In this document: positions 8,005 through 53,839 of the stretch, one piece after another
Layout of the letters: each line of letters starts with the position of its first letter
Numbering within the stretch: position 1 is the stretch's first letter
Virus record (IMG/VR): IMGVR_UViG_3300044984_002785
Source of the DNA: a virus
Taxonomy: Duplodnaviria; Heunggongvirae; Uroviricota; Caudoviricetes; Demerecviridae
Direction: 5' to 3' (one strand)
DNA: 64,000 nucleotides
Made by a program: the position numbers and the translations under genes
Notes under the pieces: model-generated
What the model saw: only the letters and a program-made list of their open reading frames with translations
What the model was told of the DNA's origin: nothing
Database searches by the model: none

Positions 8005-8196
8005 ATGTCGCAAGTAACTTATACACGAGAACTAGAAGTATTAATAATAGAAACACTATTACCCATTTATTATAAGTATTATAATGAAAAAGGTATTAAA
8101 CCCAACAAATTAGATATTAATCTAGAGTTACTAAAACAAATTAAAACAAAAGCCGTTTTACCCGCGTTATTAAGACCAAAAGAAAAACAAATTTGA
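8005..8196 (+). CDS. hypothetical protein
   Basis: 63 aa; preceded by AAGGAG RBS at 7995. Confidence 0.4.
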   Translation: MSQVTYTRELEVLIIETLLPIYYKYYNEKGIKPNKLDINLELLKQIKTKAVLPALLRPKEKQI

Positions 8197-8221
8197 CAAA
8201 GATAGTTAAATAGCTTATAAT
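8193..8221 (+). promoter_or_regulatory. sigma70-type promoter TTGACA-N17-TATAAT
   Basis: TTGACA 8193-8198, 17-nt spacer, TATAAT 8216-8221 overlapping ATG 8220 (leaderless-like arrangement). Confidence 0.45.
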
Positions 8222-8801
8222 GAATACTCGACGACAATATAAACCTGGACCAAATCAAATTGCCAGATACAAAGCTAATACAATGTCAAAAACTAAAGAA
8301 CTCTTTTCCACAATAGAACACCGAACAGTATTTGGTACCCCTCATACTACTAATACTGATAACCCCATTGATTTTCCACAAGATGATGGTTACCCAACGC
8401 CTGAGCAGATTACAGCTATGGCTGAAGAAATTATGATTCGTGGTGCAAAAAAACTATCAGACATAACTAAGTCTGCTGGTACAGCACTTAAATTTGACCA
8501 AGATAAATTACCGCTACATTTGCTTTCAACGGAAGCTATGAATCAAACAGCAGCAGTGCTGGCATTCGGCGCACAAAAATACGCAGAACATAACTGGCGT
8601 AAAGGATTTGCCTGGAGCAGACCCTTAAGCGCAGCAATGCGTCATATTACCGCTTTTAACGCAGGTGAAGATACTGACCCCGAATCGGGACTAAGTCACC
8701 TGGCCCATGCAGCTTGCTGCATTATGTTTCTCCTTGAATTCGAGAAAACTCACCAAGACCTAGATGATAGATATAAACCAGCTGTACCCAGTATTAGCTA
8801 A
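8220..8801 (+). CDS. dATP/dGTP pyrophosphohydrolase-domain (DUF5664-like) protein
   Basis: KFDQDKLPLHLLSTEAMNQTAAVLAFGAQKYAEHNWRKG matches the conserved KYDxGKxxxxLLPxxAL...GAxKYxxxNW core of this phage domain. Confidence 0.45.
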   Translation: MNTRRQYKPGPNQIARYKANTMSKTKELFSTIEHRTVFGTPHTTNTDNPIDFPQDDGYPTPEQITAMAEEIMIRGAKKLSDITKSAGTALKFDQDKLPLHLLSTEAMNQTAAVLAFGAQKYAEHNWRKGFAWSRPLSAAMRHITAFNAGEDTDPESGLSHLAHAACCIMFLLEFEKTHQDLDDRYKPAVPSIS

Positions 8802-8997
8802 AAAATTAGTTAATACCAGAAATACTTTAACAGAAGTGTGTTTAGAACACGATATTGATATACAAGATATTGATATTGATATGCTTGAGACTTTTATAGA
8901 TCAATGTTCTCATTGTAATATTTGGTCTACCAGACTTGTCGCAGACTTAGACGATAATCCCATATGTCCTATATGTGTAAAACTAACTGGATTATAA
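8764..8997 (+). CDS. small Cys-rich (zinc-ribbon-like) protein
   Basis: CSHCN...CPICV paired Cys motifs. Confidence 0.35.
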   Translation: MIDINQLYPVLAKKLVNTRNTLTEVCLEHDIDIQDIDIDMLETFIDQCSHCNIWSTRLVADLDDNPICPICVKLTGL

Positions 8998-10215
8998 ATG
9001 CAAGAATATTTTTTAGCTGAAGAACTAAAAAACTTATACAAAGAAGCAATATACACTTTGCCAGAAAAAGGTATATTTGCACACATTGGAAGCATAGATA
9101 ATGCTTACTTGAGTTATCTAGAACAACAAATAAAAGTAGCAAACTCTGAACAGTTAATAGTAACTGACATAGAGTCCTTTGACAATAATACTGTAAGTTT
9201 TATATATGTAAATATACAAGACACCAATTACGAAATAATCTTAGATAAAATATCAAAATGTTTGTCTAAGGTAATCCCTAGTGGTATTATTGCAGGAAAT
9301 AACTTTAACAGAGACACTAACCCAGCACTATGCAGAGCTGTAGAAACTTTGTTTCCAGAAGCAGAAGTACGTAATAATACCTGGATATTTAGAACAGCTA
9401 AACAAGGGGTGTTTACTTACAGCACTGACGATAGTTTAAACATACTATACAACAGAACTAAACAAATAGCAGAAACACTAATTATTACCGTTCCTAATAA
9501 TAAGAATAGCTTAATGTGTGCTACAAGGGCAATGGATAGCTGTATAGCACTAGGCCAGCCTAATCCCAGTATTTTTTGGGGATACGATGGCACGGACAAA
9601 AAACTAATTAAAACTCCTGAACATTTAAAGCATAGCGATACTATGCAGTTATTAAAAGTAATGGACACAACTCTTAGTATAACAGAAGTATCTTGTTTAC
9701 TAAGTCATATTGCTGCGTGGATTCATTGCGTAAAGATTAATCAACCAATAGTAATTTTAGAACACGATTCTATTATGCTAAAGCCCTTTACTTATTTATT
9801 AGTAAACAATACGTTAGAGTATCTTGGGCATGTTGGTGAACTTGCCAAAGAAATAAACATAGCTGATGTTGAGGAAATGCAAAACTATCTAAAAAGTGGG
9901 CAATATACTCATAAACCTGCTGCAAGGTATTTAAACATACCTCTTACACAGATGGTAAATGTTAATTATTTATTAATATTAGGCTTGCATAACTACGCAA
10001 TCGACCCTATAATGGCACGAAAGTTAGTTAGTTATGTTATAAAGTATGGTCTAGTAAATCCAGCTGATGCTATAATTGAGCAACACGATTTTACTTTAGT
10101 ACAAACAGGAACATATGCAGTTCAGTCTCCAGATGCTGAATCAACTAGTACTATAGATATTGATAAAGCTGGTAATAGAAAGTATACTTATGCCATACCT
10201 GGAGTAGCTACATGA
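8998..10215 (+). CDS. glycosyltransferase family 25-like protein (paralogue 1)
   Basis: EVSCLLSHIAAWIHCVKINQPIVILEHDSIML resembles the GT25 GCxLSHxxxW...ILEDD block (DxD degenerate to EHD). Confidence 0.4.
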   Translation: MQEYFLAEELKNLYKEAIYTLPEKGIFAHIGSIDNAYLSYLEQQIKVANSEQLIVTDIESFDNNTVSFIYVNIQDTNYEIILDKISKCLSKVIPSGIIAGNNFNRDTNPALCRAVETLFPEAEVRNNTWIFRTAKQGVFTYSTDDSLNILYNRTKQIAETLIITVPNNKNSLMCATRAMDSCIALGQPNPSIFWGYDGTDKKLIKTPEHLKHSDTMQLLKVMDTTLSITEVSCLLSHIAAWIHCVKINQPIVILEHDSIMLKPFTYLLVNNTLEYLGHVGELAKEINIADVEEMQNYLKSGQYTHKPAARYLNIPLTQMVNVNYLLILGLHNYAIDPIMARKLVSYVIKYGLVNPADAIIEQHDFTLVQTGTYAVQSPDAESTSTIDIDKAGNRKYTYAIPGVAT

Positions 10216-10862
10216 ATACTTTATTAACAAATATAGTTGACATCACAGACCCTTTAGCTAACAATGACGTAAATAAGTTCAATACCACAGGCTTAAAATT
10301 AGCTGTCGGTTGGAATCACGAAGTAAAAGAAATCGTGGTAATATCTGATCAAATACCAGAAAATTTAGAAAACACATTAATTGATATTTTTAAACAAAAA
10401 TATAGTATTACAGTATTTCCTCAATTTACTGCCAGTTGGGATGCCACAACAGCTACTAATATTATTGATACATATCCAGATTCTCATGTGGATACAAGTT
10501 TTATCAATAGCATAAAAAACATGAATCATGGGTTAAGTAGCAAAGCCATTTGCAGAGTGCTGTCCCATGCTTTAGTTTGGGATTACTGTGTAAAAGCAGA
10601 ACATCCAGTTATTATAATGGAAGCAGGAAGTATTTTAACTAACACTCTGGAAGTACATATACCAAGAAATAGTATTATTAATCTTAGTAATAGTGTTTTA
10701 AATACTGTAAACGTAAATTGGAATAGTTTTCAAGGCATAGATTGTTACAGTGTTGATCAATTTGTATCCAGACAACTATTAAATCATTTATACAAGCAAG
10801 GCATACGAGATAGCCTTAGTAAAATGATACGAGATGATTTATTTTGTATTTGCGAAATATAA
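10212..10862 (+). CDS. glycosyltransferase family 25-like protein (paralogue 2)
   Basis: CRVLSHALVWDYCVKAEHPVIIMEAGSIL aligns with the paralogue 1 block; 4-nt overlap with upstream gene. Confidence 0.4.
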   Translation: MNTLLTNIVDITDPLANNDVNKFNTTGLKLAVGWNHEVKEIVVISDQIPENLENTLIDIFKQKYSITVFPQFTASWDATTATNIIDTYPDSHVDTSFINSIKNMNHGLSSKAICRVLSHALVWDYCVKAEHPVIIMEAGSILTNTLEVHIPRNSIINLSNSVLNTVNVNWNSFQGIDCYSVDQFVSRQLLNHLYKQGIRDSLSKMIRDDLFCICEI

Positions 10863-10864
10863 AC

Positions 10865-10893
10865 TTGATTCTGTAGTTTATTTCTTGTATAAT
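10865..10893 (+). promoter_or_regulatory. sigma70-type promoter TTGATT-N17-TATAAT
   Basis: Hexamers with exact 17-nt spacing 21 nt upstream of ATG 10914. Confidence 0.45.
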
Positions 10894-10913
10894 AGATAAA
10901 TCAAAAGGAAACT

Positions 10914-11405
10914 ATGCCTTACTCTAACAGCCCCCTAAATAAACCCAAAATGAACGAACACTTTAATATTGGCTTTGCCCAAGGTACAAAAAATGACGCA
11001 ATCTTTCGCACTAACGCTCCTTACTCCAACCCTTATCAAGGCGATCGCCCTCGTTGGCTTTTTGTCTGTAGTGCTGGCCTCCTGCGCAGCCCAACCGGTG
11101 CCGCTTTAGCCATTGAGCACGGTATCAATGCCCGTAGTTGTGGAAGCAACTTTAATTATGCACTAATCCCTTGCTCGGCTAATTTGATTAACTGGGCCGA
11201 AAAGATTGTGTTTGTTAATCCAGACAATCAACACCAACTAGAAGACAATTTTGTTGGTATGTTTGATCTACTACAGCAAATTGAAGCTAAAGAAATTGTG
11301 CTCAACATCGAAGATAACTACGAGTACATGGATCCACAACTAGTCAAGTTGTTTAATGAACAGCTATTTCAACCCTACGGCCCTGTAACTAAAGGTTTCC
11401 ATTGA
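10914..11405 (+). CDS. low-molecular-weight protein-tyrosine-phosphatase-like (CX5R) protein
   Basis: RWLFVCSAGLLRSPTGAA matches LMW-PTP P-loop V-C-x-G-N-x-C-R-S-P (CX5R). Confidence 0.5.
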   Translation: MPYSNSPLNKPKMNEHFNIGFAQGTKNDAIFRTNAPYSNPYQGDRPRWLFVCSAGLLRSPTGAALAIEHGINARSCGSNFNYALIPCSANLINWAEKIVFVNPDNQHQLEDNFVGMFDLLQQIEAKEIVLNIEDNYEYMDPQLVKLFNEQLFQPYGPVTKGFH

Positions 11406-11632: not shown

Positions 11633-11708
11633 TCTGGCGTTCGTATAATGGATAATACAGCGATCTTCTAAGTCGTGAATATGGGTTCGATTCCTGTACG
11701 CCGGACCA
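11633..11708 (+). tRNA. tRNA-Arg(TCT)
   Basis: Acceptor CTGGCGT/ACGCCGG, anticodon stem GCGAT/GTCGT, loop CTTCTAA, T-loop TTCGATT, ACCA end; T-stem weak. Confidence 0.5.
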
Positions 11709-11774
11709 TTACAAATATTGACTTGTACTATCAGCCTTATTGATATATAATATAGCCTAATTAGGAGAAATAAT

Positions 11775-12098
11775 ATGTCACAATACACACCAGACCGTTG
11801 GGTCGTCTTAGAACTTATAAGTCCCAAACAAACTATTCGCAAAGTATTTGCTGGATGGTATGGTGGGTACTTAGGCAGCGACAGCTGGAAACTGAATTCA
11901 GGAATCACCGACATTCGTGAACAAGATGACTTGTTTGAGTTTGATGGTTATAGCGGAAGCACGTACTTTTGCCACCGTAATAGCTACGGCATGAGTGGCT
12001 ATATGCACTCAGTGTTGACTAGTTGGCTTAACCAAGCCGAGGCTAGCGGTAATGTTCAAATCAATATAATTGAACTTGAAGATATTGTGGCTTTGTGA
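11775..12098 (+). CDS. hypothetical protein
   Basis: 107-aa ORF preceded by TTGACT -35 (11718-11723) with -10 candidates TGATAT (11741-11746) or TATAAT (11747-11752); spacing ambiguous. Confidence 0.45.
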   Translation: MSQYTPDRWVVLELISPKQTIRKVFAGWYGGYLGSDSWKLNSGITDIREQDDLFEFDGYSGSTYFCHRNSYGMSGYMHSVLTSWLNQAEASGNVQINIIELEDIVAL

Positions 12099-12125
12099 TA
12101 TAATATAGACTGATTTGGAGATATT

Positions 12126-12326
12126 ATGGCAGGCTATTCACGCGATTTTTTAATTGATGCTTTTATGTCACGTTACATTCATTGTCAACTAATTACAGTT
12201 GAGCAGCTTGTACACATGGAACAAATGGCAAACGATCTGTTTGATCGAGTTGGTCGCGATAGCTTCCGTACTTATGCTAGCTTAGATGCTGATGCAATTC
12301 GAGTCTATAAAAACAGTATTGACTGA
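12126..12326 (+). CDS. hypothetical protein
   Basis: 66-aa ORF preceded by TATAAT at 12109-12114 with upstream TG at 12106-12107. Confidence 0.4.
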   Translation: MAGYSRDFLIDAFMSRYIHCQLITVEQLVHMEQMANDLFDRVGRDSFRTYASLDADAIRVYKNSID

Positions 12327-12375
12327 TCGTGGCTATTACTGTATAATTAGTTCTTTAAACAAAGTTCCCAGGGAT

Positions 12376-12770
12376 GGGAGAAGATCAGACCAACTACCCG
12401 AGTAACCCTCTGTGGCGAAATATTGTAGCGGTGGCGTAACAACTGACTGAACTAGGCTGTCGCCTTGACCTAGTTCCCATAATTTAATGCTCAGTCGATA
12501 AATTAATAACGGCTGGTCAGTTCTAGATAAGCTCCAGCGGGGTAGTAAGTTGTTGCAACAGCTTACGTTGAGCATTAAATTATGGGAGAGTAGTACGTGG
12601 CGGAATTCGTTCAACTAAGTGCACTCAATCTGATATTTCTAGACTATAGTTCGGACTCTGTGACCTACAGCAATTGGTACATTCCGGTGAATCTAGACCC
12701 TAAATTCGAACACAGGGAAACATATCAGGAAATTTTAGTTATGGTGGTTCGACTCCACCCTCTCCTACCA
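12376..12770 (+). ncRNA. tRNA-like / tmRNA-like structured RNA candidate (3' T-arm + acceptor + ACCA)
   Basis: 12743-12770 GGTGG-TTCGACT-CCACC + CTCTCCT-A-CCA; candidate 5' partners GGGAGAA (12376) and GGGAGAG (12584); 18-bp long-range helix 12476-12493/12569-12586; TAATAA double stop at 12504-12509; 640-nt ORF-free island. Confidence 0.4.
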
Positions 12771-12925
12771 TATTTAAGCATCCTGGCGTGGCCAGCGGTA
12801 ATAAGACTGTGGCTCCGGTGAATGTCCACCTTATTATGTCGCAGCAACAGGTTGTTTAAATATGGTTGCAGCAGACAGGGGTCTAGAACTCTGAATCGAC
12901 TAGGAATAGGTCAGCGACTACCGGT

Positions 12926-13294
12926 ATGTTCCGACCGGCAACCATAATAAATTTTAGGATAAATATGAATACAAAGCATACCCCAGATCACTGGACAATG
13001 TTCAGTTACAGCAATACTGGTACTGATGTAACTTATAAAATTTTGGCATCTTGGGACGACCTTCAGTTTGAGGGTGGCGTAATTTATCAAATCAGCGAAT
13101 CAATTACTAATATTGAAGAAACTGCTCTTAGCTTTATTGTAACAGATAGTTCTCAGGACGTTTTTACTTGCGAAAAAAGCAAGTATGGTTTCACTGAAAT
13201 TACTACGAATATTTTTAACAATATGGTTCAGGCTGAAAGCCAGATTCATCAATGGATGTTAAACGTACCTTTTACAGATATTCATTCCAGTTAA
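12926..13294 (+). CDS. hypothetical protein
   Basis: 122-aa ORF (alternative start at 12965). Confidence 0.45.
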   Translation: MFRPATIINFRINMNTKHTPDHWTMFSYSNTGTDVTYKILASWDDLQFEGGVIYQISESITNIEETALSFIVTDSSQDVFTCEKSKYGFTEITTNIFNNMVQAESQIHQWMLNVPFTDIHSS

Positions 13295-13312
13295 ACATCA
13301 GATAATATAAAC

Positions 13313-13341
13313 TTGATTTTGTTCTATAATTGTTGTATAAT
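13313..13341 (+). promoter_or_regulatory. sigma70-type promoter TTGATT-N17-TATAAT
   Basis: Exact 17-nt spacer, 22 nt upstream of ATG 13364. Confidence 0.45.
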
Positions 13342-13363
13342 TAATACTTAACACACAATAACT

Positions 13364-14362
13364 ATGCACACATTTAATCAAGAAATTAATAGAGTTGGTT
13401 TTGCCTGCAAGATACAAAAATCTCCTGGCGTAGCTGACCCTAAACTTAATACAAAAGCAACTACAATTACATGGCTAAATAAGCAATCCAAAGATGTAGC
13501 TGTAGCTCGTCTTTGGGACTTAATGCGTCATAATATTGATGCGTTGCGTAATCAAATCGTATGGGTAGGCAGTCGAGACTCTAAGCTAAGAATGTTTCGT
13601 ATTACCAGTGATCTTTTGACTGCCTACACTCACGACGACTGGATGTGGTTTTATTTTGAACCAGACGTTCTGCGTTTTTTAGAAACCAATTTAAGTAAAA
13701 TTGGTGAATTAGCCCGCAGCCTTGATGTGCGTTTATCGTTTCATCCAGGTCAATTCTGCGTTTTAGCGAGTGAACATGATGTTATCGTTGATAGGAGTAT
13801 TCTTGAGTTTGAGTACCATTGTGACCTTATCAGATATATGGGTTATGGTAAGCAATTTCAAGACTTTAAGTGCAATGTACATATCGGAGGTAAACGAGGA
13901 CCTCTTGGGATTCAAACTGCATTAAAAAAGCTGAGTCCAGAAGCTAGAAATTGTTTGACTATTGAAAATGCCGAGTTTACTTGGGGACTAGATGCTAGTC
14001 TGGAGTTAGCCAAAGACTGTGCCTTAGTATTAGATATTCATCATAACTGGATTAATACTGGTGAGTACATTGAGCCTAGTGATTCAAAGTTTCAAAAAGT
14101 TATTGATAGTTGGCGAGGCGTTAGGCCTGTTATACACTATTCCGTATCACGTGAAGATGTGCTAGTAGACCATGATCCTCTAACAAAACCTGACTTTAAA
14201 TTACTTAAATCTACAGGTTATACATCAGCTAAGCTCCGTGCTCACAGTGACTACTACTGGAATCAACCAGTAAATACTTGGGCCTTGACATTTAGTCCTT
14301 ATGCTGATATAATGTGTGAATCAAAAGAAAAAAACTTGGCTGTTGACGATTTTTTAATTTAA
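13364..14362 (+). CDS. UvdE-like / xylose-isomerase-like TIM-barrel endonuclease (tentative)
   Basis: 332 aa; LRMFRITSDLLTAY parallels UvdE IKLFRISSEIFPFA; size fits UV-damage endonuclease / AP-endonuclease family 2. Confidence 0.35.
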   Translation: MHTFNQEINRVGFACKIQKSPGVADPKLNTKATTITWLNKQSKDVAVARLWDLMRHNIDALRNQIVWVGSRDSKLRMFRITSDLLTAYTHDDWMWFYFEPDVLRFLETNLSKIGELARSLDVRLSFHPGQFCVLASEHDVIVDRSILEFEYHCDLIRYMGYGKQFQDFKCNVHIGGKRGPLGIQTALKKLSPEARNCLTIENAEFTWGLDASLELAKDCALVLDIHHNWINTGEYIEPSDSKFQKVIDSWRGVRPVIHYSVSREDVLVDHDPLTKPDFKLLKSTGYTSAKLRAHSDYYWNQPVNTWALTFSPYADIMCESKEKNLAVDDFLI

Positions 14363-14424
14363 TTGTTGCGATTCCGACAACCGCATCGGATAAGATTTGT
14401 TAGTTTGCTTCCCTAAACTAATAT

Positions 14425-14498
14425 CTCGGTGTAGTGAAATGGCATCACTCGTGCTTTGGGAGCATGGAGCGCAAGTTCGATTCTTGCCATCGAGACCA
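14425..14498 (+). tRNA. tRNA-Pro(TGG)
   Basis: Acceptor CTCGGTG/CATCGAG, D-stem GTGA/TCAC, anticodon loop TTTGGGA, T-arm GCAAG-TTCGATT-CTTGC, ACCA. Confidence 0.7.
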
Positions 14499-14687
14499 TT
14501 TTAATTTGTATGTTGCTAGATTCCGGTTCAGTCGCGGAGCTTTATGTACTTGAGACATGATACACCTAGGAAGGTATCGTGGTATGGTATGAGTCTTGGA
14601 ACAGGTCTGTGTCATGAACAGAATAAGCCAAGACCACAGCCTTAGCGGGTTGGGTAGTAAACAGCATACAAACTAAAATGAAATTAT

Positions 14688-14771
14688 GCGTTGGTGGTGG
14701 AATGGTATACACGCTGGTCTTAGAAGCCAGTGCCGAAAGGATTGAGAGTTCGAGTCTCTCTCGACGCACCA
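14688..14771 (+). tRNA. tRNA-Leu(TAG), class II
   Basis: Acceptor GCGTTGG/TCGACGC, anticodon loop CTTAGAA, long variable arm, T-arm GAGAG-TTCGAGT-CTCTC, ACCA. Confidence 0.7.
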
Positions 14772-14776
14772 TATTA

Positions 14777-14852
14777 GGGGAATTAGCTCAGCTGGGAGAG
14801 CGGCTGCTTTGCAAGCAGTAGGTCAACGGTTCGATCCCGTTATTCTCCACCA
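14777..14852 (+). tRNA. tRNA-Ala(TGC)
   Basis: GGGGAAT...TAGCTCAGCTGGGAGAGC D-arm, anticodon loop TTGCAAG, T-arm AACGG-TTCGATC-CCGTT, ACCA. Confidence 0.75.
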
Positions 14853-15110
14853 AATCAAAAAAGGATATTATGAAATATCAGTTTATTAAAGCAAGTTGGT
14901 TTAGTGGTACTCCATTTATTTGGAACGCAGTACAATCAAGCAATAATACACAGGCTAGAATTTTTAGATTCGGCCCTATCTTACTCAGAGTAGAAAAATG
15001 AAAACACCCAAACCTAGGAATCACGTTGTTTTAGCTTTAATGAAGCGAAATGGTAGTGGTTCACATCAAAAAAGCCACAAACAGCTTCGTGGCAAATGGA
15101 AGCGTAGCCT

Positions 15111-15185
15111 GGACGTATAACTTAGCGGCTAAAGTAACTGGCTTTTAACCAGTAAATCAGAGTTCGATTCTCTGTGCGTCCACCA
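15111..15185 (+). tRNA. tRNA-Lys(TTT)
   Basis: Acceptor GGACGTA/TGCGTCC, anticodon stem ACTGG/CCAGT, loop CTTTTAA, T-arm CAGAG-TTCGATT-CTCTG, ACCA. Confidence 0.75.
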
Positions 15186-15304
15186 TATTTGAGCATATTA
15201 ACAGATGGCGTTCAACCACTTGTTTAATCCTTGCAAGGCAACACGTTTACGGGAACAAAGTACAAGTTCCAAAAGTGGATGTTAGTATGCTCAAATATGG
15301 TCAT

Positions 15305-15396
15305 AGCTCTATAGTTTAATGGTAAAACGGCGGATTTATATCCCGTAAGCAACAGATAATTGGTTCATCTGGGTTCGAGTCCCGGTGGAGCTACCA
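15305..15396 (+). tRNA. atypical tRNA, probable anticodon TAT (Ile) with 22-nt extra region
   Basis: Acceptor AGCTCTA/TGGAGCT, D-stem GTTT/AAAC, anticodon loop TTTATAT (U33, A37), T-arm CTGGG-TTCGAGT-CCCGG, ACCA; variable region 22 nt and may pair (CAGAT...ATCTG). Confidence 0.4.
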
Positions 15397-15400
15397 ATAC

Positions 15401-15487
15401 GGAAGATGTGCTGCAAGGTGCGGCAGGAGTTTGCTAAACTCTCGTTCAGAAATGGGCTGACAGGTTCGATTCCTGTATCTTCCGCCA
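15401..15487 (+). tRNA. tRNA-Ser(GCT), class II
   Basis: Acceptor GGAAGAT/ATCTTCC, anticodon GGAGT-TTGCTAA-ACTCT, long variable arm, T-arm ACAGG-TTCGATT-CCTGT, GCCA. Confidence 0.75.
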
Positions 15488-15505
15488 AATAACAAAAGGA
15501 TTATT

Positions 15506-15730
15506 ATGCCTTGTATGAAATGCGCTAATGGTAAGTATAAATATGGTGAACATGGAAAATGTGTTTACGATACTCTAGCTGCGTGCAAACGTGCCGCTGC
15601 AGCAATACATATTCATGAACCAGGCCCACATGGGCCTATTCCTAGTACTGAACCAGCTAAAACAGCGGCAGCAATGTCACCTTGGCACGATTCTAGTTGT
15701 AAATGCTCTAAGTGCTTAAAGAAATCTTAG
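15506..15730 (+). CDS. small Cys-rich protein embedded in tRNA array
   Basis: 74 aa with 8 Cys (CMKC...CKCSKC); RBS-like AAAGGA upstream. Confidence 0.45.
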   Translation: MPCMKCANGKYKYGEHGKCVYDTLAACKRAAAAIHIHEPGPHGPIPSTEPAKTAAAMSPWHDSSCKCSKCLKKS

Positions 15731-15732
15731 GT

Positions 15733-15806
15733 GTGGCTATAGTGTAATGGTTAGCACCCGAGATTGTGATTCTTTTAGTCTGAGTTCGATCCTCAGTAGT
15801 CACCCC
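15733..15806 (+). tRNA. tRNA-His(GTG)
   Basis: Acceptor GTGGCTA/TAGTCAC, D-stem GTGT/GCAC, anticodon loop TTGTGAT, T-arm CTGAG-TTCGATC-CTCAG; no encoded G-1, 3' end CC-T. Confidence 0.6.
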
Positions 15807-16068
15807 TAAGATATTTTTACACTTGAAAAAATTAACCGAATCTAGTATAATTATGAATCAAATACAAGTTTTATTAGATAAAGAAGCAGAATTAGGTAAT
15901 AGACGTTATTACATATTACAACAGATTAAAGCACAGCGGGGTACACAGCCACCGCATTGTTGGGGAATGGACGACTGTTCAACCCTAACGCTTAGTCAGT
16001 GTCCTTGGCGTATAGATTGTGGCGAACATGAGTCACAAGTTTACCAAGAACAATTATCATTATTTTAA

Positions 16069-16144
16069 GCCGCGATAGCTCATCAGGTAGAGCAGCAGAC
16101 TGAAAATCTGTGTGTGGCTGGTTCGAGTCCAGTTCGCGGTACCA
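16069..16144 (+). tRNA. tRNA-Phe(GAA)
   Basis: GCCGCGATAGCTCATCAGGTAGAGCA, anticodon loop CTGAAAA, T-loop TTCGAGT, acceptor 3' TCGCGGT-A-CCA. Confidence 0.75.
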
Positions 16145-16149
16145 AATAC

Positions 16150-16224
16150 GCGCTTGTAGCTCAGAGGAAGAGCATTCGCTTGATAAGCGAAAGGCCGACA
16201 TTTCGAAATTGTCCAAGCGTACCA
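16150..16224 (+). tRNA. tRNA-Ile(GAT)
   Basis: GCGCTTGTAGCTCAGAGGAAGAGCA, anticodon TTCGC-TTGATAA-GCGAA, acceptor 3' CAAGCGT-A-CCA. Confidence 0.7.
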
Positions 16225-16305
16225 GTAACTATCTAGATACTCTAATTCTAGTAACTCTGCGAATCGGGTTAGAATTCGCACAACACACAACACAGGAGAC
16301 TACTA

Positions 16306-16538
16306 TGTCCAACAAATCCCCTTTTGAAATTCGTCTTGAAATCCTCAAGATGACCGCAGAACTTATGAAATCTGAGTATGAATCCAATATGGAATTCATT
16401 ACTGAAATGCAAGAAAATCTAGCTGACAAAGGGTTAAACACCCAGGCTATGATTGAAAAATTTATGCCAAAACCATTTAGTTTTGATGAAATGCTGGCAA
16501 AGTCCAAGCAGTTCTATGAGTTTGTAAATGCTAAGTGA
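16306..16538 (+). CDS. hypothetical protein (77 aa)
   Basis: ORF track 16110-16538 trimmed to first ATG downstream of tRNA-Ile (MSNKSPFEIRLEIL...). Confidence 0.45.
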
Positions 16539-16728
16539 GTTAATGCAGCGTGTACAGGAAGTATTCAAGCCTTACACGATGGACGACTTTATGAATGACG
16601 GTTGCCCACAAGATCATGCAGATGTTCAAAGACTTGAACTTGTCTGGCAGTCTTACCAAAACCGAAAACTTTTCAATACCTGTTACTAAATTTTACGCTC
16701 AAAGGGAAACCTTTGGGCGTTTTGGCCT

Positions 16729-17250
16729 ATGCAACTAAATTATAATGAATATGCAGACAAAATAGATTTAAAATATTCTATTATTCAAGGTTTGCTGGTA
16801 GAAGATGTATCAGGTGTGCTGACTGTGTCTACTGATTTTAAACCAAATACTATTTATTTAAATAAGTATAATAGAACAGCAGCTATCATAGTAGCTGAAA
16901 AAGAATATATAGGAAGACCGTATATTCTTAAAAAGTCGGACTGTATTAAATTAGTCAATGAGTGGCTAGATGACAGACTAAATACCGACTACGTAAAAAG
17001 ATACAAAGAAACTGACAATAGACAGTTTAAAAGATATTACGCCGAAGGTGTAAAGTACGCATATTTAGATAATGGATTTACAGAAGTTGTTGATCAATCT
17101 ATGAATGTAGGAGACGTATTATTATATACTACTAATCTTCATGTTGCAGTGTATGTAGGTAATAATACAATTTTACATCATTTGCCGCGTAAACTATCTT
17201 GTTATGATACTTTAGATAGTGCAAGTATACTAGGAGTATATAGACCATGA
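16729..17250 (+). CDS. NlpC/P60-family peptidase-like protein
   Basis: KKSDCIKLVNEWL (catalytic Cys context) and GDVLLYTTNLHVAVYVGNNTILHH (His context) in NlpC/P60 order. Confidence 0.45.
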   Translation: MQLNYNEYADKIDLKYSIIQGLLVEDVSGVLTVSTDFKPNTIYLNKYNRTAAIIVAEKEYIGRPYILKKSDCIKLVNEWLDDRLNTDYVKRYKETDNRQFKRYYAEGVKYAYLDNGFTEVVDQSMNVGDVLLYTTNLHVAVYVGNNTILHHLPRKLSCYDTLDSASILGVYRP

Positions 17251-25717: not shown

Positions 25718-25721
25718 TTTA

Positions 25722-26318
25722 TTGAAGGAATTTATGACAAAAACAAGTATTCTAGACCCTAAGCTGTTTCAAACAGACAAGTATTCAAATAACTTCACAA
25801 AATCAGTTGCACACATTCATGAATTTTATCTAACTGGTGAAATTGGTGATGCTGAAGAATACATTGAGTGGTTTGATATTATCCGTAATGCCAGTGCAGT
25901 AGACAGTATTCGCATTTACATTAACAGTCCGGGTGGTGATCTTTTTACTACCTTACAGTTTTTACGTGTTATGTCAGATACTGAAGCCACAGTAACTACT
26001 AGTGTTGAAGGCGCTTGTATGAGTGCTGCAACCATGATCTTTTTACATGGTCATACACAAGAAGTAACCCCCCACAGCCTGTTCATGTTTCACGACTATT
26101 CGTCTGGTACATTTGGTAAAGGCGGTGAACAATATGACCAGATTCAGTTTGAGCGTGGTTGGTCTCGTAAGTTTTTAACAGAAGTCTACACAGGTTTCTT
26201 AACTGATGCCGAAATTGAGTCAATGATGCACAACAAAGACATTTGGATGGACTCAGAAGAAGTTGTTAAGCGTTTAACCGTATTACATAAGGCTCGCGAA
26301 GCCGAAGCCAAAGAATAA
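25722..26318 (+). CDS. ClpP-family (S14) serine protease-like protein
   Basis: YINSPGGDLF, GACMSAATMIF (Ser context), SLFMFHDY (His context) in ClpP order; AAGGA RBS 25711; begins 5 nt after the tmRNA locus. Confidence 0.5.
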   Translation: MKEFMTKTSILDPKLFQTDKYSNNFTKSVAHIHEFYLTGEIGDAEEYIEWFDIIRNASAVDSIRIYINSPGGDLFTTLQFLRVMSDTEATVTTSVEGACMSAATMIFLHGHTQEVTPHSLFMFHDYSSGTFGKGGEQYDQIQFERGWSRKFLTEVYTGFLTDAEIESMMHNKDIWMDSEEVVKRLTVLHKAREAEAKE

Positions 26319-26437
26319 ATATCGCGGGGATTCAGGGTATCAGTAAGTCTCATAAGCTCAACTGTGGTCGTTTCGAATACACCCCCCGCAACCAATAACA
26401 CGGCTAAACCCTCTGCGTGAGTACGGTTTAGTTTTCA

Positions 26438-26529
26438 GGAAAGTAATGCAGCGGGGTTGGTCCTGCGACCAGCCTTGAAAACTGGGTTCTCTTAACAGGG
26501 ATGGGGTTCGACTCCTCTGCTTTCCGCCA
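26438..26529 (+). tRNA. tRNA-Ser(TGA), class II
   Basis: Acceptor GGAAAGT/GCTTTCC, anticodon loop CTTGAAA, long variable arm, T-loop TTCGACT, G-CCA. Confidence 0.6.
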
Positions 26530-26596
26530 TAAGTAAGTCTATTGATAACAACGAGCTAATACGCGTTAAAGTGCTTGTAACTTAGTAGGCTTTCTT

Positions 26597-26911
26597 ATGG
26601 CTATTTCATTTTCAAAACTAAAATCACCCTTGCTAGGCATGACTGACAATATACTGGTCGGCAAACTAGCTGGATGCCGCGTATGCGACGTTATTCCCGA
26701 TCACTACGAATATTTGATTTGGGCAGATAAACAAGGTTTGTTAAAATTTCAAGCAATTGTTGTTGAAACTATTGCAGAACACGCTGGATTTAAGTCGCAG
26801 CAGCAATATTACACAGAAGAAGTAGAGCCTTTTATTACTAAAGAGCCTAAATTACGAGAAACCAACGAACCTCCTTATTTAGACGACTACTTTGATGATA
26901 TACCATTTTAA
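26597..26911 (+). CDS. hypothetical protein
   Basis: 104-aa ORF; stop abuts tRNA-Gly. Confidence 0.45.
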   Translation: MAISFSKLKSPLLGMTDNILVGKLAGCRVCDVIPDHYEYLIWADKQGLLKFQAIVVETIAEHAGFKSQQQYYTEEVEPFITKEPKLRETNEPPYLDDYFDDIPF

Positions 26912-26912
26912 T

Positions 26913-26988
26913 GCGTGCTTAGCTCAGTTGGTAGAGCACTTCGTTGCCAACGAAGATGTCGCAGGTTCGAACCCTGTAGCCCGCACCA
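26913..26988 (+). tRNA. tRNA-Gly(GCC)
   Basis: GCGTGCTTAGCTCAGTTGGTAGAGCA, anticodon CTTCG-TTGCCAA-CGAAG, T-arm GCAGG-TTCGAAC-CCTGT, acceptor 3' AGCCCGC-A-CCA. Confidence 0.7.
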
Positions 26989-27021
26989 CTTTTTAACCCG
27001 CGCCAAACATACAAAAACACA

Positions 27022-27228
27022 ATGTATAAAATATACTACTCAGACGAACATGATAACGCTAGTGCGTATAATGTTAGTGAACTAAAGACTGCACTATCGG
27101 CTGTGGAAGCCTTACGTCAGGTAGGGTATAAGTATGTAACCTTGGTTAGTGATTATGCCGACATGGTTGGTAAGCCTGGCGTAAAAGCCGCAGGTACAGA
27201 GTGCATCCCACAAATGTTGAATCCTTAA
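27022..27228 (+). CDS. hypothetical protein
   Basis: 68-aa ORF. Confidence 0.4.
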   Translation: MYKIYYSDEHDNASAYNVSELKTALSAVEALRQVGYKYVTLVSDYADMVGKPGVKAAGTECIPQMLNP

Positions 27229-27236
27229 ATCTACAC

Positions 27237-27265
27237 TTGACCCTAAGCTGAATCTTTGATATAAT
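27237..27265 (+). promoter_or_regulatory. sigma70-type promoter TTGACC-N17-TATAAT
   Basis: Contains the recurrent TTGACCCTAA motif; immediately upstream of ORF 27267. Confidence 0.4.
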
Positions 27266-27266
27266 T

Positions 27267-27497
27267 ATGTCTATGAAACACAAATTCAATATCAAACCAC
27301 TTAGTCCAGAAATGAACACGCCACGAGCCACTACCCGACCACCAAGTCGCGTAACTGCTGGTGGAAGTACGGCTTTAAAAGAGATTCCAGTATATACCGG
27401 TACAGAAATGATCGGTATTTCAATTATTCACAAGAGCTGCTTGCAGCCAGTATTCAGTCGCGAAGCTGCCGTTGATGCAGCTAGTATGCGACGTTAA
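27267..27497 (+). CDS. hypothetical protein
   Basis: 76-aa ORF. Confidence 0.4.
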   Translation: MSMKHKFNIKPLSPEMNTPRATTRPPSRVTAGGSTALKEIPVYTGTEMIGISIIHKSCLQPVFSREAAVDAASMRR

Positions 27498-27500
27498 TTT

Positions 27501-27574
27501 GCAGGGTTGGTATAGTGGCTGTGCTCTAGCCTTCCAAGCTAGTGAGGCGAGTTCGATCCTCGCACCCTGCTCCA
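27501..27574 (+). tRNA. tRNA-Gly(TCC)
   Basis: Acceptor GCAGGGT/ACCCTGC (perfect), anticodon CTAGC-CTTCCAA-GCTAG, T-arm GGCGA-GTTCGATC-CTCGC, T-CCA. Confidence 0.75.
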
Positions 27575-27575
27575 T

Positions 27576-27650
27576 GCATCCTTAGCTCAGAGGTAGAGCG
27601 GCTGCTTTACACGCAGCGGGTCGGCAGTTCGAAACTGTCAGGATGTACCA
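27576..27650 (+). tRNA. tRNA-Val(TAC)
   Basis: GCATCCTTAGCTCAGAGGTAGAGCG, anticodon GCTGC-TTTACAC-GCAGC, T-arm GGCAG-TTCGAAA-CTGTC, acceptor 3' AGGATGT-A-CCA. Confidence 0.75.
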
Positions 27651-27739
27651 AACACAACCGCTAAGGATATGAGTACCTGCGCAGGATCGTCCAGGGGATG
27701 CGGCACTTAGGGTTACCCTTGACCCTAAACTATTTAAAC

Positions 27740-27783
27740 TTGACACAAATCCCCGAATAGAGTATAATAACTACTATTCGGGG
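27740..27783 (+). promoter_or_regulatory. consensus sigma70 promoter TTGACA-N17-TATAAT overlapped by 11-bp palindrome (operator-like)
   Basis: TTGACA 27740-27745, TATAAT 27763-27768; TCCCCGAATAG (27750-27760) and CTATTCGGGGA (27774-27784) flank the -10 element. Confidence 0.55.
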
Positions 27784-27794
27784 ATTATTACATT

Positions 27795-28349
27795 ATGGCA
27801 AACATTTTTTTCGCATCAGACCACCATTTCCATCATAAAAATATTCTTGGTTTTAAGAATAGTGACGATACTCCATTACGAGTATTTGATGATGTTGACC
27901 ACATGAATGAACACATGGTTTACTGCCACAACCGTGTAGTAAAACCCACCGACAAAGTTTATTTTATAGGCGACGTATCTATGAGTCGCAATGCCAAGGG
28001 TCTAGAAATTCTTGGGCGCATGAATGGCGAAAAGGTCTTGATCAAAGGCAATCATGATCTAGCTAACGCTAATCAATATTTACAGTATTTCAAAGATATT
28101 CGTGGTAGTCATCAATTTGATGGAATGATTCTAACACATATTCCAATTCATCCTGAGAGTCTAGCACGTTGGGGATTGAATGTACATGGCCACTTACACA
28201 ATAATACTGTAATGCTTCGTGGGTTTGCAGATAAGCCTGTTGAACCTGACTCTAGGTATTTTAATGTGTCTATGGAAAGAATTAATTTTACTCCTATCTC
28301 CCTAGAGGAAGTTAAAAAGTATGTTAGATTGCCTGATTCTAGGAGATAG
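27795..28349 (+). CDS. metallophosphoesterase / Ser-Thr phosphatase-like protein
   Basis: ASDHHFHH, YFIGDVSMS, IKGNHD phosphoesterase motifs. Confidence 0.5.
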   Translation: MANIFFASDHHFHHKNILGFKNSDDTPLRVFDDVDHMNEHMVYCHNRVVKPTDKVYFIGDVSMSRNAKGLEILGRMNGEKVLIKGNHDLANANQYLQYFKDIRGSHQFDGMILTHIPIHPESLARWGLNVHGHLHNNTVMLRGFADKPVEPDSRYFNVSMERINFTPISLEEVKKYVRLPDSRR

Positions 28350-28716
28350 TATTGCACAAGGTATTGCTCAGCATCGTCCTGAGTGTGCCCTATATGCACG
28401 TCAAGGTATAACCAGCTATAATTGGAATAAAAGGTATCTAGGCTTAGGCCTAGATGCTAAACATACTATTATTAGTCTAGGAAGCAATGACGATTGGTGG
28501 GCTGAAAAGACTTCCAAGGAACTTACAGACATACGCTCAAATTTAAGTGGACATGTAACATGGATTCTTCCTGCTAATAAATCAAATAGTCGAACCGCTG
28601 TACGAGCCGTAGCTAAAACATTTAATGACCTAGTTTTAGAAATACCCGAAACCATACAAGATAAGGTTCATCCTAGTGCACGAGCATACCGTACACTAGC
28701 AAATCAAACGCGCTGA
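28321..28716 (+). CDS. SGNH/GDSL-family hydrolase
   Basis: ILGDSIAQG (block I GDS) and SLGSNDDWW (block III) motifs. Confidence 0.5.
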   Translation: MLDCLILGDSIAQGIAQHRPECALYARQGITSYNWNKRYLGLGLDAKHTIISLGSNDDWWAEKTSKELTDIRSNLSGHVTWILPANKSNSRTAVRAVAKTFNDLVLEIPETIQDKVHPSARAYRTLANQTR

Positions 28717-28784
28717 TAGCTTAATGGTAAAGCGTCCGACTCATAATCGGTTGAGTCTAGGTTCAATTCCTAGTCAGCGCACCA
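28710..28784 (+). tRNA. tRNA with CAT anticodon (Met or lysidine-Ile)
   Basis: Acceptor GCGCTGA/TCAGCGC (perfect), D-arm GCTT-AATGGTA-AAGC, anticodon loop CTCATAA, T-arm CTAGG-TTCAATT-CCTAG, ACCA; overlaps the last codons of the upstream CDS. Confidence 0.65.
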
Positions 28785-31622: not shown

Positions 31623-32423
31623 ATGAACAAATTTTTCAAAATCTCTGCTATTGTTGCCGCCCTTATGCTAGCAACTGGTTGTACCCGTATTGAAACGGGT
31701 GAAGTTGGTGTACGAGTTGGCTTTGATAAACAAGTTCAAAGTGGTGAACTCCTACCGGGTTCGTTTAATCAAACCTTGGTAGGTACAGTACTTACCTTTC
31801 CTGTTAAAGATGTAAACGTAGTCTTGGAGAATATGACTCCTGTGGCTGCCGATAATTCTACTATGAAAGACTTTGATGCTGTAGTTGTTTACAATATCAA
31901 CCCTGCACAGGTTGCTGAACTGTATGCTACTAAGAACAAGAGTTTCCATGCTGAAAGTAAAAGTGGTGATACTCTTGTGATGTACAACTACATTGTTCAA
32001 ACTGCTCGTAATGCTATCTATAAGGCCGCACGAAAGTACGAAGCATTAGACATGGCTGACAAGCGTAATGACATGGAAAAGTTCATTCAAGACGAGATTA
32101 CCCGTAACATGACCGAAGAAAAACTAGATGGTGCAATTACTGTCAGCCAAGTGATGATTCGTAATGTTGTGCCCAGCGATACAGTTGTTGAAAGTGCCAA
32201 TGCCCTAGTTCGTAGCAAAAACGAGCTAAAGCAAAAAGAAGTTGAAGTTAAGACTGCTGAAGCTGAAAGTCGCCGTATGGCAGCACTGGCTAATAACAGT
32301 GGCAGTTCAATTGCCTTTATGCAAGCACAAGCCATGTTGAATATCTCTGAAGGTATCAAAAATGGCAAAGTTCAGACCATTGTTGTTCCTAGTAACTTCA
32401 ATGCACTGATGATGCCCAAGTAA
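31623..32423 (+). CDS. lipoprotein with SPFH/band-7-like domain (tentative)
   Basis: Lipobox LATGC after signal peptide; FDAVVVYNINP resembles SPFH VDAVVYYRVxDP. Confidence 0.4.
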   Translation: MNKFFKISAIVAALMLATGCTRIETGEVGVRVGFDKQVQSGELLPGSFNQTLVGTVLTFPVKDVNVVLENMTPVAADNSTMKDFDAVVVYNINPAQVAELYATKNKSFHAESKSGDTLVMYNYIVQTARNAIYKAARKYEALDMADKRNDMEKFIQDEITRNMTEEKLDGAITVSQVMIRNVVPSDTVVESANALVRSKNELKQKEVEVKTAEAESRRMAALANNSGSSIAFMQAQAMLNISEGIKNGKVQTIVVPSNFNALMMPK

Positions 32424-52497: not shown

Positions 52498-52950
52498 ATG
52501 CAACAACAACAACAACAGCAATTTATGCCGTTTGGTTGGTCTATGCCTCCGTATCTACCTATATTACCACCTATAGATGACTGTGACTTATTTATAAACA
52601 GTACAGTAATCGGACCACCAGGCCCTCCGGGCCCACCTGGCCCACCGGGTCCTCCAGGTCCCCCCGGAACACCTGGATTAGTTCCAACAATTACAGTTGA
52701 AGCTGATTATACTGCGGAACTCACAGATTACTTTATTGGTGTCATAACTAGTGCAGAGTTTACAATTACATTACCAAATGGACCTACCGGAACTGTGTTT
52801 ATCGTCAAAGACGTAAGTGGAACTGCTAGTACAAATCCAATTACAATTGTAAATACTGTAAATATTGACGGACAAGCAGGTGCTACAATTGACACCGACT
52901 TCGGGTCACTTACATTTGTTTATAGCAGTGGAGCTTGGAATATAGTATGA
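52498..52950 (+). CDS. collagen-like repeat protein, member of TNPITI...VYSGxxW paralogue family
   Basis: (GPP)n collagen triple-helix repeat then TNPITIVNT...GSLTFVYSSGAWNIV. Confidence 0.55.
   Translation: MQQQQQQQFMPFGWSMPPYLPILPPIDDCDLFINSTVIGPPGPPGPPGPPGPPGPPGTPGLVPTITVEADYTAELTDYFIGVITSAEFTITLPNGPTGTVFIVKDVSGTASTNPITIVNTVNIDGQAGATIDTDFGSLTFVYSSGAWNIV
52611..52678 (+). repeat. collagen-like GPP/GPPG codon repeat
   Basis: GGACCACCAGGCCCTCCGGGCCCACCTGGCCCACCGGGTCCTCCAGGTCCCCCCGGAACACCTGGA encodes GPPGPPGPPGPPGPPGPPGTPG. Confidence 0.8.
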
Positions 52951-53806: not shown

Positions 53807-53839
53807 TCACCCCCAAACTTTTAATTCAAGGAAATAATT

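Follow-up and report, generated by a model that had tools for sequence, protein, structure and literature searches.

Do three adjacent phage genes, two encoding glycosyltransferase-like proteins and one encoding a phosphatase-like protein, act as one unit? The question is raised by positions 8998–11405 of a 64-kb stretch of DNA (IMG/VR record IMGVR_UViG_3300044984_002785; hereafter the window) from an uncultured, T5-like tailed phage. A sequence-only reading of this locus had described two paralogous GT25-like proteins with degenerate DxD motifs, followed after a promoter by a phosphatase of the low-molecular-weight protein tyrosine phosphatase (LMW-PTP) type, and it had suggested that the three might work together. 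As for the genes themselves, that description was accurate: three adjacent open reading frames (ORFs) of the + strand lie at the positions that it gave.

8998–10215, + strand: ORF1, 405 amino acids (aa)
10212–10862, + strand: ORF2 ('GT25b'), 216 aa, overlapping ORF1 by 4 nt
10914–11405, + strand: ORF3, 163 aa

Our view of how these genes relate to each other is a different one. The reading that we favor, with a probability of about 55%, is that two unrelated modules abut here, namely a GT25a/GT25b cassette for glycosylation of fibres or other virion proteins (ORF1 and ORF2) and a phosphatase belonging to a nucleotide-metabolism block (ORF3). ORF1 and ORF2 would then represent a mobile two-gene glycosylation cassette that landed between a small gene, ORF77, and the phosphatase gene. 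What appears to be new is a virus-specific branch of the GT25 family with an E-H-D motif, a probable pseudo-enzyme partner and a fossil methyltransferase domain, lying beside an uncharacterised family of phage cysteine phosphatases.

The GT25 pair interrupts a conserved gene block

The following neighboring features are needed to describe the junction.

8193–8221, + strand: promoter-like site TTGACA-17-TATAAT, agreeing with the sigma-70 consensus at 12/12 positions (consensus match only)
8283–8801, + strand: dATP/dGTP diphosphohydrolase (dGTPase; Pfam PF18909, E=2.7e-35; PHROG 801)
8764–8997, + strand: ORF77, a small Cys-rich protein (CSHC...CPIC), at the upstream boundary of the cassette insertion
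10865–10893, + strand: sigma-70-like site TTGATT-17-TATAAT between ORF2 and ORF3, 10/12 consensus positions (consensus match only)

About 40 T5-like relatives share the gene order of the window, and none of them carries GT25 genes. In these relatives ThyX, a metallophosphatase and a SleB-like hydrolase are encoded on one strand. The opposite strand carries dGTPase, ORF77, in some cases UvdE, then the phosphatase and ORF107. ORF77 sits between the dGTPase gene and the PTP-like (or UvdE) gene in about 40 relatives, and at loci L097, L107, L114 and L128 the phosphatase gene comes immediately after it. Since the relatives keep this order without the pair, the GT25 genes are an insert, placed precisely at the junction of ORF77 and the phosphatase gene. 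A neighborhood census of the best 80 loci per family revealed no PTP-like gene within 10 kb of GT25a (0/80 viral loci) and no GT25a or GT25b gene within 10 kb of the PTP-like gene (0/80 loci). One relative, a 44.5-kb contig, does repeat the order of the window (dGTPase, GT25, 210 aa, 154 aa). The trio is confined to the narrow lineage of the window, as verified on this contig and inferred for six others. ORF3 belongs ancestrally to the early nucleotide-metabolism block, which consists of dATP/dGTP diphosphohydrolase, ORF77 and the phosphatase.

These observations bear directly on the possibility that the three genes are one unit, in which the phosphatase, together with the two glycosyltransferases, would control the making of glycan or capsule, for instance through dephosphorylation of a Wzc-type tyrosine kinase, as the sequence-only reading had envisaged. 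The genes are indeed adjacent on one strand, their order recurs in the 44.5-kb contig, and in fold ORF3 best matches Wzb phosphatases. However, the fold matches of ORF3, at 12–17% identity, extend equally to YwlE, ArsC and eukaryotic LMW-PTPs. A promoter-like site parts the GT25 pair from the phosphatase, whose conserved neighbors are dGTPase, ThyX and ribonucleotide reductase (RNR), and about 40 syntenic relatives possess the phosphatase but not the cassette. With no co-occurrence in 160 independent viral loci (0/80 and 0/80), an inserted pair and a phosphatase whose partners are nucleotide-metabolism genes, we abandon the idea of a functional trio as highly improbable, and nothing was found in support of Wzc-type dephosphorylation. 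It seems that adjacency in a single genome was misleading and that the apparent operon is an insertion junction, a lesson that may be useful for annotation in general.

The promoter that had been placed ahead of ORF3 corresponds to the 10/12 site, as a consensus match. Elements resembling it, TGTATAAT, are present in L110, L119 and L121. We did not retain a promoter at this place as a conserved feature of the family, as it is not universal and many relatives couple the gene to UvdE instead. The stronger site at 8193–8221 probably drives dGTPase, ORF77, ORF1 and ORF2. It overlaps the first listed ATG (8220) of the dGTPase ORF (8220–8801), and therefore a start at the Met at 8283 is probable for this gene and gives a protein of 172 aa; the dGTPase product in one relative has 167 aa.

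ORF1 is a GT25-family protein with an acidic motif of its own

9430–10215, + strand: GT25-family GT-A glycosyltransferase (GT) domain of ORF1 ('GT25a'), residues 145–405, L-E-H-D subfamily
9760–9768, + strand: E255-H256-D257, a variant of the GT25 E-D-D metal/nucleotide motif
10066–10068, + strand: D357, putative catalytic base, invariant, aligned to the Asp of KPIDE in 8xc8

ORF1 matches the Pfam family PF01755 with 46.7 bits (gathering score 24, E=4.4e-12) over residues 198–355, and this domain is carried by 58/58 of its homologues. The block shared by the two GT25-like proteins reads SCLLSHIAAWIHCVKINQPIVILEHD in ORF1 and ICRVLSHALVWDYCVKAEHPVIIMEAG in ORF2. That they are paralogues, as proposed on the basis of this block, is borne out by the Pfam match of ORF1, by BLASTP between the two (E=3e-10, 24% identity) and by hhalign comparison of the GT25b and GT25a family profiles (probability 99.4%, E=7e-22). 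The AlphaFold2 (AF2) model of ORF1 has a predicted local distance difference test score (pLDDT) of 88.6, and the top PDB fold match of its C-terminal domain is 8xkd_B, a GT25 beta-1,4-galactosyltransferase (E=1.9e-6); the GT25a profile matched 8xc8 with E=8e-5. Matches of ORF1 to Ig domains around 'C.A.G.P.P.I.W', obtained in a single-sequence PDB search, were judged to be due to chance.

In common with the bacterial LOS beta-1,4-galactosyltransferases of the GT25 family (8xc8 and 8xkd) and with the catalytic GT2/CGT domain of the human collagen galactosyltransferase GLT25D1/COLGALT1, the protein has a GT-A fold, an LSHxxxW helix, a hydrophobic strand with an acidic motif and a downstream catalytic Asp ('PxD'/'DE'). 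It departs from known GT25 proteins in that the phage motif is E-H-D and not E-D-D, and in that its subfamily is almost virus-only, is fused or adjacent to Methyltransf_24 and is linked to sulfotransferases.

Is this deviating motif a sign of decay? The motifs quoted by the sequence-only reading (E255-H256-D257 in ORF1, E137-A138-G139 in ORF2 and CX5R in ORF3) had all been read correctly, and it was the first two that had been called degenerate. In ORF1, LEHD[S/A] is identical in 58/58 homologues, down to 31% identity, and E-H-D is kept in 48/49 GT25a genes of non-redundant viral loci. Both E-H-D and D357 are among the 20 columns that are invariant over 38 sequences, again down to 31% identity. 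This invariance makes E-H-D a subfamily signature and not a product of degeneration; the term thus applies to ORF2, where the motif and the catalytic base have been lost, but not to ORF1.

In the model, E255-H256-D257 ends the predicted strand 251–255 after four hydrophobic residues, which is the expected place of a DxD motif. In GLT25D1, E435 and D437 of E-D-D bind Mn2+, while D436 hydrogen-bonds the ribose of uridine diphosphate (UDP) (PMC12003778), and D522 of the 'DE' motif is the catalytic base (PMC12987934). If the strand-end topology of the model is followed, both metal ligands would stay in ORF1 and only the ribose-contacting Asp would be replaced by His. D357, in turn, is equivalent to the 'DE' motif Asp of GLT25D1 and to PID-E of 8xc8. 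Because candidate metal ligands and the putative catalytic-base Asp are kept, ORF1 is probably active. Judged by its residues, it is probably an inverting transferase that depends on a metal ion and a nucleotide sugar, and its metal or donor site may be modified.

ORF2 resembles a pseudo-enzyme under constraint

10620–10628, + strand: E137-A138-G139, the motif position with the Asp lost; E-[A/S]-G is invariant in 15 sequences
10818–10820, + strand: S203, at the catalytic-base Asp position; Ser/Thr stands opposite ORF1 D357 in BLASTP, hhalign and MAFFT alignments

ORF2 aligns to the same segment of the PF01755 profile as ORF1, with 22 bits (E=1.6e-4), just short of the gathering score (24). The databases yielded only 14 homologues for the ORF2 family, and PF01755 is carried by 4/14 of them. 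The protein also ends short of the conserved C-terminal STI...R tail of GT25a. At the motif position, more distant partner genes have EHD, END, EHN, ENN, ESS, EST, EAS or EAG, with the Glu always kept, and this series seems to trace the path along which the motif was lost. Within the ORF2 family, 39 columns are invariant over 15 sequences down to 43% identity. ORF2 is most likely a pseudo-enzyme under strong constraint, which would assist ORF1 without catalysis of its own, either structurally or in binding the acceptor.

We favor a division of labor in which ORF1 would transfer the sugar and ORF2 would assist as an inactive partner. GLT25D1 offers a parallel, as its second GT domain has no catalytic activity but helps to keep the active domain stable (PMC12003778, PMC12987934). 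Both systems would couple an active with an inactive GT unit. They differ in that the inactive unit of the phage is a separate, translationally coupled GT25 paralogue, and not another GT-A domain within one chain.

The N-terminal part of ORF1 is a methyltransferase relic

8998–9417, + strand: decayed Methyltransf_24 (class I S-adenosylmethionine (SAM) methyltransferase) relic, ORF1 residues 1–140, from alignment to fused homologues

Homologues of ORF1 are either GT25-only proteins of about 270–290 aa or proteins of about 450–480 aa in which Methyltransf_24 (PF13578) precedes GT25, and ORF1 is intermediate between these classes. Compared to the fused homologues, its SAM-binding motif VEIGxWxGKST is replaced by AHIGSIDNAYL, FIDGxHSY has become YVNIQDTNY, GDD has become GNN, and about 55 residues are deleted. 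In the Pfam scan, PF13578 did not match ORF1 at E<=1. The domain nevertheless keeps a recognisable Rossmann-like fold, with fold matches to the sugar O-methyltransferases MycF, SpnH and CalS11. Given the replacement of the SAM-binding (glycine-rich motif I) and acidic motifs and the loss of about 55 residues, we regard the N-terminus as a dead relic.

One could go further and ask whether both GT25-like proteins are dead remnants of a decaying moron with no present function. The methyltransferase domain is clearly decayed and ORF2 is without two catalytic residues, and if an ungapped alignment register considered below is right, ORF1 is left without its last Asp too. Against this stand the invariant columns, 20 for ORF1 (38 sequences) and 39 for ORF2 (15 sequences), as well as the persistence of the tightly coupled pair in several unrelated phage lineages. 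Neutral decay does not fit with such invariance and such persistent tight coupling, and it seems to us most improbable that the pair is functionless.

The same pair lies in tail-fibre modules of unrelated phages

GT25a followed by GT25b was found in L004 (a T4-like 184-kb contig), L006/L007 (an unrelated large phage) and eleven IMG/VR loci (L010–L018, L020 and L021); the spacing of the two genes ranges from -13 to +1 nt. At other GT25a loci a second full GT25a copy, in tandem, takes the place of the partner. A separate Methyltransf_24 gene lies beside GT25a in about 36 loci. Of 45 non-redundant loci, 35 have sulfotransferases near GT25a, 32 have RCC1-repeat proteins (the largest with 2719 aa) and 14 have S74-type long tail fibres. 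It is in the pair-bearing clade in particular that tail fibres adjoin GT25a. An example is L014, where the pair is embedded in a fibre module composed of a small collagen-like protein, two small proteins and a distal long fibre. The window has homologues of all parts of this module, at 49–80% identity, and otherwise the two share almost nothing. In the window they are located as follows.

52498–54241, + strand: fibre-like gene cluster (52498–52950, 52935–53498 and 53840–54241), candidate acceptors or co-travellers
58927–63948, − strand: long tail fibre of 1673 aa with a C-terminal S74-type chaperone region, matching tail-fibre PHROGs, a candidate acceptor

The product of 52498–52950 (150 aa) starts with a poly-Q stretch, carries a (GPP)7 collagen-like run and ends in a domain with weak similarity to baseplate/fibre PHROGs. 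The L014 homologues of this cluster, 49–80% identical, are encoded upstream of the GT25 pair, at a distance of 3.4 kb. The long fibre of the window is 65% identical over 395 aa to a 2173-aa fibre of L014 whose gene is 1.7 kb from the pair. On T4-like contigs, S74-ended fibres with collagen-like (G-A/V-Q/P)n repeats stand directly upstream of the pair (L004:7076–7969 and L012:569–2266); these repeats comprise up to 31 triplets, with Ala or Val as X and Gln or Pro as Y.

Because the same pair occurs inside tail-fibre modules of unrelated phages, we infer that the acceptor is part of the phage-host recognition surface, and it would most likely be the phage's own fibre or another virion protein. 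The nucleotide-metabolism neighborhood of the pair in the window is explained by the insertion there.

That neighborhood could also suggest a quite different acceptor, i.e. a hydroxymethylated base of phage DNA, glycosylated as a protection against restriction. The neighbors of the cassette include dATP/dGTP diphosphohydrolase, ThyX and UvdE, and GT-A enzymes that glycosylate DNA bases do exist. However, no gene for a dCMP/dUMP hydroxymethylase, a TET/JBP enzyme or a DpdA-type enzyme was found among the window ORFs scanned, ThyX together with dUTPase points to ordinary thymidine, and elsewhere the pair accompanies fibres, sulfotransferases and sugar-type methyltransferases instead of DNA-modification genes. 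We would give very little credit to DNA as the acceptor.

A more serious competitor is a host glycan. The pair might remodel the host envelope (lipopolysaccharide (LPS) or lipooligosaccharide (LOS) core, O-antigen or capsule) early in infection and so mask the fibre receptor, leading to superinfection exclusion or to less sticking of progeny to debris. T5 offers a parallel, as its Llp protein masks the FhuA receptor. The bacterial GT25 enzymes that have been characterised act as LOS/LPS galactosyltransferases, and among solved structures ORF1 is best matched by a beta-1,4-galactosyltransferase. The cassette lies downstream of a strong early-type promoter-like site, and linkage to fibre genes would be equally expected if the specificity of the enzyme had to track the receptor glycan. 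On the other hand, the L-E-H-D subfamily is nearly absent from cellular genomes (2/185,579 species), which would be unusual for an LPS gene borrowed from a host, no lipid-carrier, flippase or Gtr-type membrane partners were found nearby, and the phage O-antigen modifiers known to us come from temperate phages and fall into other GT families. We consider action on a host glycan rather unlikely, and prefer a virion acceptor because of the fibre-module linkage, the virus-only distribution and the viral precedents that combine two GT units with a methyltransferase.

One of these precedents is A064R of PBCV-1, a virus-encoded GT+GT+methyltransferase protein which is expressed early and decorates virions (PMC9614988); L230 of mimivirus, with a GT25-like domain and a lysyl hydroxylase, acts on viral collagen-like proteins (PMC9614988). 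The phage locus resembles A064R in bringing together two GT units and a class I methyltransferase domain. It is unlike the PBCV-1 and mimivirus systems in that one GT unit and the methyltransferase are degenerate, and in that it belongs to a T5-like phage with a bacterial host. Glycosylation of mycobacteriophage capsids and tails has reportedly been described by Freeman et al. in 2023. To our knowledge, virion glycosylation has been demonstrated for giant viruses and for mycobacteriophages, and there is hardly any such case among phages of Gram-negative bacteria.

The L-E-H-D subfamily as a whole was found in 365 viral contigs, as opposed to 2 of 185,579 species genomes. A tblastn search with ORF1 in a phage collection (50,697 records) returned two uncultured marine-virus records only and no isolated phage. 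GT25 domains in general are common in giant viruses and uncultured tailed phages. A broader hypothesis may be offered: L-E-H-D GT25 proteins would be a virus-specific machinery glycosylating tail fibres and RCC1-propeller virion proteins, with active GT25a and pseudo-glycosyltransferase GT25b forming a heterodimer, and with the sulfotransferases and sugar methyltransferases of many aquatic phages giving rise to sulfated and methylated glycans. We put it forward tentatively, as a possibility that we hold to be less likely than not. If true, it would mean that unrecognised virion glycosylation is widespread in phages of Gram-negative bacteria, and that the T5-like phage has a stripped-down version of it. 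In any case, a subfamily with hundreds of viral contigs and a recurrent pseudo-enzyme partner offers a concrete and testable entry point to virion glycosylation.

Two further observations concern the subfamily. At IMG/VR loci L022–L089 (e.g., L038:54–8213 and L047:7653–9542) there is a recurrent order of a giant RCC1-repeat protein, a sulfotransferase, an LEHD GT25 and Methyltransf_24, often with RNR genes coming after them; no description of this order was found in the literature searched, and an apparent prasinovirus match for 'RCC1' and glycosyltransferases turned out to refer to strain numbers of a culture collection. The two cellular matches are the chromosome of Bdellovibrio sp. HCB337 (L170, 6931–8645) and a contig of an 'Acidimicrobiaceae' metagenome-assembled genome (L171, 3466–9337), both with an adjacent sulfotransferase. 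The latter is probably a mis-binned viral contig, given its 35% GC, five sulfotransferase genes and tandem GT25a.

Observations that weaken the case for a virion glycosylation cassette

Several points count against the reading preferred here, i.e. that of an inserted cassette of an active and an inactive GT25 protein acting on virion proteins. The first is the register of the ORF1 motif. Both HMMER and MAFFT align LEHD-S to LFEDD of the bacterial GT25 structure without a gap, which amounts to a shift by one residue. In this register the canonical Glu and middle Asp would be matched by His and Asp, instead of Glu and Asp, and the essential last Asp by Ser/Ala, so that the metal site of ORF1 could be altered or absent. 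Even in the other register, a His at the D436 position is not trivially neutral, because D436A alone nearly abolishes GLT25D1 activity (PMC12987934).

As to ORF2, it retains an invariant E137, H119, an HxPRNS block and RDD, and may have a non-canonical activity. The ORF1-ORF2 complex itself is deduced solely from translational coupling.

The acceptor poses a similar difficulty. Hydroxylysine, the known protein acceptor of GT25 enzymes, is inapplicable, as the collagen-like fibres beside the pair are without Lys. We rejected it for this phage, there being no Lys in the collagen-like repeats and no 2-oxoglutarate (2OG) oxygenase in the window. Furthermore, about 48 kb separate the cassette of the window, which is part of the early region, from the fibre gene, and sulfotransferase and RCC1 genes are absent among the window genes, so that these partners are a feature of GT25a relatives and not of the window. 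Finally, the coverage of the neighborhood census is limited to its 80 best loci per family.

ORF3 represents a phage-rich family of LMW-PTP-like proteins

11067–11090, + strand: P-loop C52-S-A-G-L-L-R58-S59 (CX5R-S), following strand 47–52
11313–11315, + strand: D134, candidate general acid (loop I-[E/P]-D-x-[Y/F]), kept by at least 90% of relatives

The assignment of ORF3, which contains FVCSAGLLRSPT, to the LMW-PTPs stood at the level of the superfamily but not at that of the Pfam family. ORF3 had no Pfam match (including PF01451 LMWPc at E<=1), none in NCBIfam and none in PHROG, and a single-sequence PDB search returned nothing. LMWPc matches were seen in 14/71 relatives, all of them sub-threshold (best E=0.005). 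A profile built from the 71 relatives, in turn, found only the LMW-PTP superfamily in PDB, with the arginine phosphatase YwlE first (E=2.8e-4), followed by LMW-PTPs and Ssu72. The AF2 model (pLDDT 87.5, predicted template modelling score (pTM) 0.80) led to the same superfamily, to which all of its top 50 PDB matches belong (Wzb, YwlE, LMW-PTP and ArsC); the best of them has E=4.9e-5, with a template modelling (TM) score of about 0.5 and identities of 12–17%.

Conservation within the family is consistent with catalysis. C52, R58 and S59 are kept in at least 90% of 71 diverse relatives and G55 is invariant; N72, R74, G77 and W94 are further invariant residues, and there is a conserved N-terminal APYxNPYQG element. 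A weak HMMER alignment puts D134 opposite the DIPDPY loop of Vibrio Wzb (7dhd). ORF3 thus shares with the LMW-PTPs (Wzb, MPtpA, YwlE, Ssu72 and ArsC) the fold and an N-terminal strand leading into a C-X5-R-S/T P-loop, and, as far as a weak alignment can tell, a loop Asp about 80 residues downstream that corresponds to the DP(Y) loop. It differs from them in its loop, which is CSAGLLRS and not CxGNxCRS, in its identity to them of only 12–17%, and in the abundance of its family in phages, where it is embedded in nucleotide-metabolism clusters. From these residues, ORF3 is probably active as a cysteine phosphatase. Within the LMW-PTP superfamily it represents a distinct family, rich in phage members.

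More than 726 homologues of ORF3 were found, under the JGI label 'predicted protein tyrosine phosphatase', and by default a role as a phospho-amino-acid phosphatase would be assumed. In unrelated phages, however, the neighbors of ORF3-type genes are dATP/dGTP pyrophosphohydrolase, ThyX/thymidylate synthase, metallophosphoesterase, MazG and RNR genes, and this constant nucleotide-metabolism context suggests a substrate of a different kind. For a very abundant and uncharacterised family, the association with deoxynucleoside triphosphate (dNTP) metabolism thus suggests a role far from the 'tyrosine phosphatase' label of the databases. In some T5-like relatives two PTP-like genes are present in the same block (L104 at 8477 and 9920, L121 at 9478 and 9983), as a tandem or near-tandem duplication.

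The phage and other genes of the window

A megablast search among 50,697 phage records returned no DNA-level relatives of the region. The nearest cultured relatives of the DNA polymerase are those of T5-like Vibrio phages, including pVp-1, VPT02 and Thalassa, at only about 49% identity, and a gene with a Phage_T5_A2 domain is present in the close metagenomic relative (the 44.5-kb contig). For replication the window encodes a family A DNA polymerase, a DnaB-like helicase, a primase, SbcCD and an NAD-ligase, and for nucleotide metabolism RNR, ThyX and dUTPase. A PADLOC scan gave no meaningful match for a defence or anti-defence role.

RNA genes of the window comprise 24 tRNA genes and one transfer-messenger RNA (tmRNA) gene. 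The tRNA array (11634–28784, + strand) has small ORFs between its 24 genes, and its tRNA-Arg(TCT) begins 8 nt past a 74-aa ORF downstream of the phosphatase gene. The tmRNA (25262–25680, + strand) is of the two-piece (permuted) type, with the tag peptide ANDQTYALAA and Rfam scores of 99.6 bits for beta_tmRNA (gathering score 84) and 108 bits for tmRNA_permuted. This beta-type permuted tmRNA hints at a betaproteobacterial host, in agreement with the best matches of ORF3 among cultured phages, which are phages of Variovorax, Acidovorax and Alcaligenes. Directly 3' of the tmRNA gene there is a gene for a ClpP-like protease (25722–26318, + strand; PF00574, E=4.8e-12), and the two could be a phage-borne tagging-plus-degradation pair. 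The early/tRNA region also encodes an NlpC/P60 peptidase-like protein (16729–17250, + strand, E=4.5e-7) and an SPFH/Band-7 domain protein (31623–32423, + strand, E=1.3e-18).

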